Shown here piece after piece: positions 22,927-23,036 of a DNA stretch of 64,000 nt. Every line of letters begins with the position of its first letter. Positions within the stretch are counted from its first letter, which is position 1. The notes beneath the pieces are model-generated. The model saw only the letters and a list, made by a program, of their open reading frames with translations, had not been told where the DNA came from and ran no database searches. The position numbers and the translations under genes were made by a program. This DNA is from a virus. Its lineage: Duplodnaviria > Caudoviricetes. The stretch covers positions 363 to 64,362 of IMG/VR virus record IMGVR_UViG_3300013093_000048; one strand, 5' to 3'.

Positions 22927-22936
22927 AGTGTATACT
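22927..22936 (+). promoter_or_regulatory. Promoter AGTGTATACT for the candidate small RNA
   Basis: Same decamer as 13381-13390; lies 6 nt before the RNA hairpin. Confidence 0.55.
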
Positions 22937-22942
22937 TCTTTT

Positions 22943-23036
22943 GCGTGTAGCTTTTCCTCCTTCGTTTGGGCTATACGTGAAACTCCTTGATGTGATGGTT
23001 TGGCCCCCGGACTTAAAACGCCCGGGGGTTTTTTTA
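22943..23036 (+). ncRNA. Candidate trans-acting antisense sRNA with two anti-SD domains
   Basis: -10 box, 11-bp G:U-containing stem with a CCTCCTT loop, second CTCCTT segment, terminator; complementary to early-gene leaders. Confidence 0.7.
23004..23035 (+). terminator. Intrinsic terminator (plus strand)
   Basis: CCCCCGG-loop-CCGGGGG-T7; T-run only on the plus strand although flanking genes are minus. Confidence 0.85.

Follow-up and report, generated by a model that had tools for sequence, protein, structure and literature searches.

The locus and its features

We analyzed a short plus-strand unit, a candidate gene for a small RNA (sRNA), that lies upstream of terS in a 64,000-nucleotide stretch of DNA from a virus (Duplodnaviria; Caudoviricetes; IMG/VR record IMGVR_UViG_3300013093_000048, positions 363 to 64,362), hereafter called the window. 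The viral source contig is 64,362 bp long and was judged 96% complete, and the window is nearly all of it. The late genes run on the minus strand from terS (22229-22861) through terL, which matches Terminase_6N/6C, to the portal and major head genes, and the early and replication genes, including those for an amidoligase, a family-A DNA polymerase and a primase-polymerase, form a plus-strand arm from 24053 to 46873. A preliminary description, made from the letters alone, had placed the plus-strand unit between terS and the tRNA genes, all of which are on the minus strand, and the gene positions and strands bore this out. It had also seen a self-contained arrangement of box, hairpin, linker and plus-strand terminator, and our promoter scan and fold agree with it. 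The features are listed below, where SD stands for Shine-Dalgarno.

22907-22936, plus strand: promoter-like site of the sRNA (consensus match), TATACA, 18 nt, TATACT, with GTG and a T-rich tract ahead
22939-22953 paired with 22968-22982, plus strand: 5' hairpin of 15 bp including 5 G:U pairs (fold and covariation)
22954-22967, plus strand: loop, called seed 1, UUCCUCCUUCGUUU, 14 nt, made of the anti-SD core CCUCC and the extension UUCGUUUG
22983-23001, plus strand: linker, called seed 2, CUCCUUGAUGUGAUGGUUU, 19 nt, a second anti-SD stretch with CUCC
23002-23036, plus strand: intrinsic terminator with a 9-bp G+C-rich stem, an 11-nt loop and a U7 tail
22905-22912 (box 22905-22910), minus strand: -10 box of the terS promoter, TGTATACT, back to back with the sRNA promoter
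23039-23311, minus strand: tRNA-Leu, tRNA-His and tRNA-Pro

The plus-strand fold of 22937-23040 had a minimum free energy (MFE) of -33.8 kcal/mol (z = -3.17), and none of 200 shuffled sequences was as stable; the minus-strand fold was weaker (-26.3, z = -2.44), with 2 of 200 shuffles as stable. The linker (22983-23001) was unpaired in both the MFE and the centroid structures, and the terminator hairpin is followed by a T run on the plus strand only, none being present on the minus strand. The hairpin, which had been placed at 22943-22978 with strand-specific G:U pairs, was found as 22939-22982, and its G:U asymmetry favours the plus strand. The box itself, AGTGTATACT, ends at 22936 on the plus strand. 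A coding reading of the open reading frame (ORF) at 22941-23090 was rejected, as it has no SD sequence and as frame-breaking indels of 1-2 nt between close relatives disrupt the sole plus-strand ORF, indicating that the unit is not coding. Note that the 9-mer ACTTAAAAC occurs in the same sense in the terminator loop (23011-23019) and in the leader of the amidoligase gene (27049-27057), and that 11 nt are common to both in the relative L006. The 9-mer matches 3 times in the window (1.58 expected), a number that 23 of 100 shuffles also reached; its sharing is probably due to chance.

As examined by the promoter scan, TATACA-18-TATACT is present symmetrically on both strands, so that the -35 region of each promoter is the -10 box of the other; the -10 boxes of terS and of the sRNA (22931-22936, plus) are 26 bp apart. 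TATACT is depleted in the window, with 23 matches against 38.5 expected. An A/T tract with TG and TATACT was observed at four intergenic sites, namely 13381-13386 (minus), 22905-22910 (minus), 22931-22936 (plus) and 23352-23357 (minus), which precede the late operon (13381), terS, the sRNA and the tRNAs, respectively. These sites may form a promoter class of their own, unlike the first early promoter, TGTTATAAT (23962). The likeness of the sRNA promoter to the terS, tRNA and late-operon sites hints at co-expression with late functions and at an early-to-late translational switch; a promoter of this type could equally be constitutive for host RNA polymerase.

Conservation and covariation in related viruses

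A search with the terS protein gave 71 related viral loci (relatives are cited below by handles such as L003 or G002), and the unit was found by blastn in 37 of them with 77-99% identity, corresponding to 14 distinct variants, the window included. A covariance model (R1) was built from an alignment of 11 variants (A1), and this model gave 24 matches at E <= 1 in the 34 more distant loci, nearly all on the strand opposite to terS and about 80-170 nt upstream of it. Furthermore, an exact search of viral contigs with the 19-nt loop region returned 30 stretches, 11 of which came from contigs not seen before. These 11 make up a second clade with unrelated stems (e.g. ACCGTAGC...GCTATGGT), a different terminator and an identical loop region (20 nt). 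When R1 was run over 79 sources, 55 matches at E <= 0.01 were obtained, and the 27 distinct ones form the alignment A2. The model thereby places the unit next to terS in 54 related viral loci, which belong to a large group of uncultured phages. The same unit upstream of terS in related phages, which the preliminary description had proposed to look for, is therefore present, conserved and covarying.

In A2, which was fitted to the structure of R1 itself and hence favours pairing counts, 96.2% of 575 cells were standard pairs, compared with 77.3 +/- 1.2% in shuffled alignments. Both sides had changed in 17 of 23 pairs (9.8 +/- 1.5 in shuffles), and none of five covariation measures was reached by any of 500 shuffles; controls with slid partners gave 31-57%. 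Despite the fitting, the conclusion that the stems covary is safe because the effect is large and the stems of the second clade are unrelated. Specifically, 11 of 14 pairs of helix 1 had changed on both sides, and helix 2, the terminator stem, was 99.1% paired with 6 of 9 pairs changed on both sides. G:U pairs account for 109 of 346 cells in helix 1, so that this helix is 94.2% paired when read on the plus strand and 63.6% paired on the minus strand, indicating that the RNA is encoded by the plus strand.

The loop was invariant or nearly so in the 27 distinct variants, which fall into three clades with completely different stems. The linker varies between clades and is deleted in the L016/L024 clade. 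A promoter-like tract (T-rich, TG and a TATAMT-like box) stands at a constant distance from the hairpin in all clades, and the other clades have different terminator sequences in the same place. Remoter relatives keep the layout of T-rich tract, TG-TATAMT box, hairpin, seed and terminator with different sequences, and their seed reads UUUUC(C/U)(UC)CUU(U)CGUUUG or UUUUCCUUUGG. In one relative, L043 (4896-5058), the module is inverted, so that it runs in the same direction as terS from its own TTGACA-17-TAATCT promoter; in this respect it behaves as an autonomous cassette. Ahead of the L043 promoter stand three direct repeats of GTTGAYAC, possibly an operator array.

The sRNA was more conserved than the terS DNA in 4 of 6 comparisons, and close relatives have no tRNAs beside the module. 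Judged by TerL, the nearest cultured phages (HTVC027P, DSL-LC04, MinM2 and 023Pt_psg01) are about 50% identical; they gave no R1 match at E <= 1, and megablast of 22000-24500 against phage records returned no match. Taken together, the plus-strand unit is very probably a gene for a small non-coding RNA with two exposed anti-SD stretches.

Predicted targets in the window and in relatives

We then evaluated the pairing of the two seeds with start regions by two procedures. In the duplex test, the isolated loop or linker was paired with start regions, and the shuffled controls permuted the flanks and kept CCUCC or CUCC in place. In the cofold test, the whole RNA was folded with each of 96 start regions of 80 nt, and the energies of both self-folds were subtracted to give ddG; the cofold shuffles (n = 170) used 60-nt regions and kept the stems, terminator and cores. 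ORFs overlapping 22870-23370 were left out of the start-region set, and the start-codon calls are crude, more so for late genes. The three start regions that ranked highest by cofold are as follows.

27038-27075, plus strand: amidoligase start region (gene 27073), the best predicted target, in which seed 2 pairs with GUCAAACCAUCAC and AGGAGUUU
26319-26339, plus strand: leader of gene 26337, CAAACGAAAGGAAAAG, predicted to pair with seed 1, with a bulge of 2 nt
39458-39476, plus strand: start codons and first five codons of gene 39461, with CCAAACGAAGGAG at 39464-39476, a 13-nt contiguous complement of seed 1

The ddG values of these regions were -22.8 (27073), -20.1 (26337) and -18.5 (39461), against a mean of -8.3 (sd 4.15) over the whole set. 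Of the 170 shuffles, 0, 1 and 2 attained their ranks 1, 2 and 3, respectively, and none attained the sum of the top three; 7 of the 170 attained the mean binding over all start regions. In the duplex test, the best hit of the loop was reached by 8 of 200 shuffles and that of the linker by 5 of 150. The linker's best start region was the amidoligase leader, with a duplex energy of -29.7, and the gene behind it has a Pfam Amidoligase_2 match. Directly ahead of this leader, the palindrome GGGACAG-N4-CTGTCCC was observed at 27021-27037; four relatives (L005, L006, L028 and L024) have GGGATAG-GTTT-CTATCCC there, with both arms changed and the palindrome kept.

The preliminary description had quoted complementarities to five early leaders (26319-26334; before gene 24053; 27038-27050 plus 27060-27067; before gene 24524; and 33552-33561), and all of them are present, as are the reverse complements of its two domains. 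As targets, the leaders of 27073 and 26337 stood out, whereas those of 24053, 24524 and 33564 came 6th-7th by duplex energy and fell outside the cofold top 12, resembling any SD-bearing leader. In the comparison with shuffled controls that it had called for, the cofold outcome was positive, the duplex outcome was positive just for the top hit of each domain, and relatives lend partial support. On the other hand, it had missed the site in gene 39461, which is the strongest loop match in the window after the loop's own antisense (-26.2, both strands scanned). The product of this gene (39461-39910) matches PHROG 801 (dATP/dGTP pyrophosphohydrolase) and PHROG 2252 ('endolysin; inhibits RNA polymerase', T7-lysozyme-like), and its N-terminus diverges from those of relatives after MMPNE. 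terS was also considered as a conserved target, and this was not supported in the window (5th by duplex, outside the cofold top 12). The idea that the loop is the complement of a consensus early leader was rejected.

The search of relatives for the amidoligase leader yielded 8 distinct sequences from 19 loci, each of them complementary to the sRNA outside the SD core. A linker-type leader, (A)AACCATCA(A)C, occurs in four lineages (the window, L003, L005 and L006), and a loop-type leader, CAAACGAA(A)GGA, in five groups (L015, L028, L094/L026, L024 and L020); the clade that has no linker seed (L016/L024) has an amidoligase leader of the loop type. L005 has one additional U in its linker, opposite an additional A in its amidoligase leader, giving 12 contiguous pairs. 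By duplex, this leader ranked first in the window, L006 and L044, and by cofold it ranked 1/19 in L006, 2/90 in G005, 2/18 in L047 and 5/17 in L016; amidoligase genes cut by the ends of their loci (L003, L005, L026, L020, L037 and L034) are unranked.

The leader of 26337 is part of a conserved cassette (...CTAACAAACGAAAGGAAA...) that stands ahead of different genes in different relatives, and the gene behind the cassette had cofold ranks of 1/17, 2/22, 3/105 and 4/25 in relatives. The cassette, AAGTAAACAACCACTAACAAACGAAAGGAAA (26290-26336 in the window; positional homologues in L003, L005, L006, L016, L020 and L026), precedes unrelated genes and has the look of a mosaic boundary or of a regulatory leader held in common. 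The suggestion of the preliminary description that the sRNA pairs with early leaders is supported in part: 27073 and 26337 recur among the best-ranked leaders of relatives, and the other three leaders that it had named are ordinary in the window.

Two further results concern the seeds outside the window. CAAACGAA, the complement of the most conserved part of the loop, was found in 12 of 534 distinct SD-bearing leaders from 18 representative sequences, whereas 168 permutations of the same composition gave a mean of 1.05, and only its own overlapping shifts equalled it. In addition, the linkers of other clades have perfect complements of 11-12 nt in clade-specific leaders, namely those of a P-loop gene in L102 and of a 74-aa gene in clade C. 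In L102, which belongs to the second clade, the linker seed ATCCTCGTTTGA perfectly complements the leader of the gene for a 371-aa P-loop protein (4673-5788, minus), and this protein has no homologue in the window. In G002 (L077-L080), the strongest predicted site (ddG -31.2) covers the start and first codons of the MTTFTTEDRE gene, an orthologue of 32013 in the window, whose start was mis-assigned as leader by the gene caller used.

Several observations weigh against regulation of selected early messages. Within the window, ranks 2 and 3 by duplex were not unusual (loop, 31 and 59 of 200 shuffles; linker, 48 and 58 of 150), and any RNA that bears CCUCCUU binds every strong SD. Binding was indeed stronger for early than for late start regions (Mann-Whitney; cofold, p = 6e-7; loop by duplex, p = 3e-7), but this difference may reflect the stronger SDs of early genes. 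The commonest early leader, CAACTAAGGAG, is not what the loop complements, and CG precedes AAGGAG in just 14 of 215 leaders. In 39461 the codons that hold the site are conserved, and only 10 nt of it are kept in relatives. terS, not supported as a target in the window, was the top-ranked start region by cofold in L026 and L107.

Among relatives, the amidoligase leader came just 3rd-5th by duplex in L016, L011, L028 and L015 and fell outside the cofold top five in G002, and the best loop targets differ among the window, G002 and G005. The 12 leaders with CAAACGAA are mostly homologous copies of two leader types, and one of the 12 is the antisense of an sRNA gene; the linker-target motif TCAAACCA was not enriched, being equalled or exceeded by 10 of 280 permutations. 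Shuffle tests elsewhere gave moderate results, as the top-3 sum was reached by 7 of 150 shuffles in L102, where the loop only was shuffled, and by 2 of 90 in G005, where it was mostly the linker; this partial shuffling of the seeds was due to the partition of the RNA by its fold. Lastly, the energy matrix of 5 linkers and 4 leaders was not diagonal, with the own leader best only in the window and L005 rows. The co-variation of seeds and targets that the preliminary description had asked about is accordingly weak: one matched indel in L005 speaks for it, the matrix speaks against it, and the loop, being invariant, cannot co-vary with its targets.

Possible roles and comparison with known RNAs

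We favour, at a probability of roughly one in two, the view that the sRNA acts in trans as an anti-SD riboregulator of early phage messages, using a loop seed that is universal and a linker seed that is specific to each clade. An RNA of about 95 nt (about 22942-23036, plus) would be transcribed from its own sigma-70-like promoter to the intrinsic terminator and would expose two single-stranded pyrimidine seeds, the near-invariant loop UUCCUCCUUCGUUU and the clade-specific linker with CUCC. These seeds would pair in trans across the SD and start regions of selected early mRNAs, which in the window may be the amidoligase operon leader 27073 (linker), 26337 (loop) and 39461 (loop), and the numerous strong AAGGAGG leaders in the early arm would be bound more weakly. 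The expected outcome is that 30S binding is blocked and translation is lowered. We infer the transcription, the repression and the timing of the sRNA from sequence; action as an early-to-late switch, in particular, is our inference only.

It is somewhat unlikely that the sRNA is instead a general anti-SD RNA, with a loop that mimics the 16S rRNA 3' end (CCUCCUU) and titrates strong SDs or else a single conserved mRNA or RNA-binding protein of the host; the phage matches would then be by-products. Over about 20 nt the loop does not vary among clades that differ in early genes and in best phage targets, and this points to a partner beyond the variable phage genes. Leaders with AAGGAGG all pair at about -17 to -19 kcal/mol, and most shuffles bind the start regions less strongly on average, as described above. 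However, when 185,579 species genomes were searched with the complement of the loop 18-mer, the 38 matches were scattered, with no recurring taxon or gene. Moreover, the complement of the conserved extension UUCGUUUG is enriched in the phages' own leaders, and the perfect complements (11-13 nt) of clade-specific linkers lie in clade-specific phage leaders.

We consider it unlikely that the unit is a cis element of the terS control region, acting by promoter competition with terS or as an antisense against read-through from the tRNAs or upstream genes into terS, with a terminator that shields the tRNAs from antisense transcription. The module adjoins terS in all loci found, each -10 box lies in the -35 region of the other promoter, and terS was ranked best in L026 and L107; in addition, there is no minus-strand terminator between tRNA-Leu and terS, so that read-through from the tRNAs is possible. 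A purely cis role nevertheless leaves unexplained why the loop is invariant and the stems covary freely. The inverted module in L043 is neither antisense to a terS-strand transcript nor part of a divergent promoter layout, and the tRNAs to be shielded are missing beside the module in close relatives.

The preliminary description had also suggested immunity during a latent state, in which the RNA would silence early genes in a lysogen in the manner of P1 c4 or P4 CI. This is very improbable even though there is a formal mechanistic likeness, in that the loops are complementary to ribosome-binding regions (for c4, see PMC12197685). No tyrosine or serine recombinase (Phage_integrase or Resolvase) was matched in the 96%-complete genome, whereas control searches were positive, and R1 found no copy of the sRNA gene among the 38 bacterial loci that bear the seed complement; with neither an integrase nor a prophage copy, an immunity role is unlikely. 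The only full-length weak match of R1 among those bacterial loci, L136 (16.9 bits), was rejected as the tail end of a coding sequence with a terminator behind it. The records of the nearest cultured TerL relatives, as shown, name no lysogeny genes near terL, and the c4 family of Rfam gave no match at E <= 5. It is likewise very improbable that the unit is a pac site, a terminase recognition site, an operator or some other DNA-level site upstream of terS. Such a site would fit the position beside terS and the palindromic AGTATAC...GTATACT boxes, but it can hardly account for the G:U strand asymmetry and compensatory changes, which are RNA signatures, or for a promoter and an orientation-specific terminator that are conserved in function and not in sequence.

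The comparative support for the sRNA family is unusually clean, as three clades with unrelated stems have one loop in common. If early-gene translation is repressed by the sRNA, an RNA layer would be added to the temporal control of phage genes, in the form of a compact and portable translational off-switch; if the loop is aimed at the host instead, the sRNA would be a new device of host takeover. To our knowledge, base-pairing sRNAs are well studied in bacteria and temperate phages and hardly in virulent phages. In our text searches of the literature, and in a term search within a review (PMC12197685), we came across no description of an anti-SD loop RNA beside packaging genes.

Among phage transcripts, the sRNA can be compared with members of several classes. 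It has in common with lambda OOP and P22 sar, which are cis-antisense to one neighbouring gene, that it is short and has its own promoter and terminator in a control region. The module here, however, occurs in both orientations with respect to terS, and what is conserved in it is the loop and not a whole overlap. T4 RegA is a protein that occupies the start regions of several early mRNAs and so shuts off their translation, whereas the proposed effector here is an RNA. We tentatively raise the possibility of a widespread and undescribed phage strategy, in which a small RNA mimic of the ribosome's anti-SD tail is made as packaging and late genes switch on and masks the strong SD leaders of early and possibly host messages, letting weak or coupled late starts escape; it would be an RNA counterpart of RegA and a translational early-to-late switch.

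P1 c4 and P4 CI, both trans-acting RNAs, had been named as analogues of the unit at the outset. The analogy holds at the level of function and not of family, since c4 of P1/P7 (Rfam C4, RF01695) was absent at E <= 5 in 21000-25000. In the Rfam covariance search of this region at the same E limit, which the preliminary description had proposed, no family reached its gathering score and only sub-threshold sRNA matches were obtained, the best of which were all on the plus strand and spanned the whole unit. Burkholderia anti-hemB (RF02837) scored 23.5 bits (E = 0.021) against a gathering score of 49.5, and Betaproteobacteria toxic small RNA (RF02278) scored 18.3 bits (E = 2.7) against a gathering score of 50, indicating that the sRNA is a member of neither family. 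The RNAs of both families are, as here, short sRNAs ending in a terminator, and the Betaproteobacteria toxic small RNAs are expressed in B. cenocepacia with unknown function (PMC4603805).

According to PMC12197685, c4 of P1/P7 is a structured phage small RNA whose loops pair with mRNA around a ribosome-binding site and block translation. It has an immunity function in temperate plasmid prophages and acts on one operon (ant), whereas the sRNA here occurs in a genome in which no integrase was found, has a generic anti-SD loop with an extension, and has several candidate leaders. The cuckoo/ar14 RNAs of Alphaproteobacteria (RSs0680/CcsR and SmelC397, the latter being NfeR1) are likewise described as modular hairpins whose stems vary and whose loops have a conserved anti-SD motif (PMC4615179), and NfeR1 is described as pairing with the ntrB translation initiation region (PMC10746234). 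Their defining feature is two to four adjacent hairpins, each with the loop motif CCUCCUCCC (PMC4615179). The sRNA, by comparison, has one hairpin with the loop UUCCUCCUUCGUUU and a linear seed, contains no CCUCCUCCC, and is borne by a phage and not by a chromosome; the cuckoo/ar14 family of Rfam had no match at E <= 5 in 21000-25000. With the defining features of those families absent from it, the sRNA would nevertheless be like c4, cuckoo/NfeR1 and other anti-SD sRNAs in its way of working.

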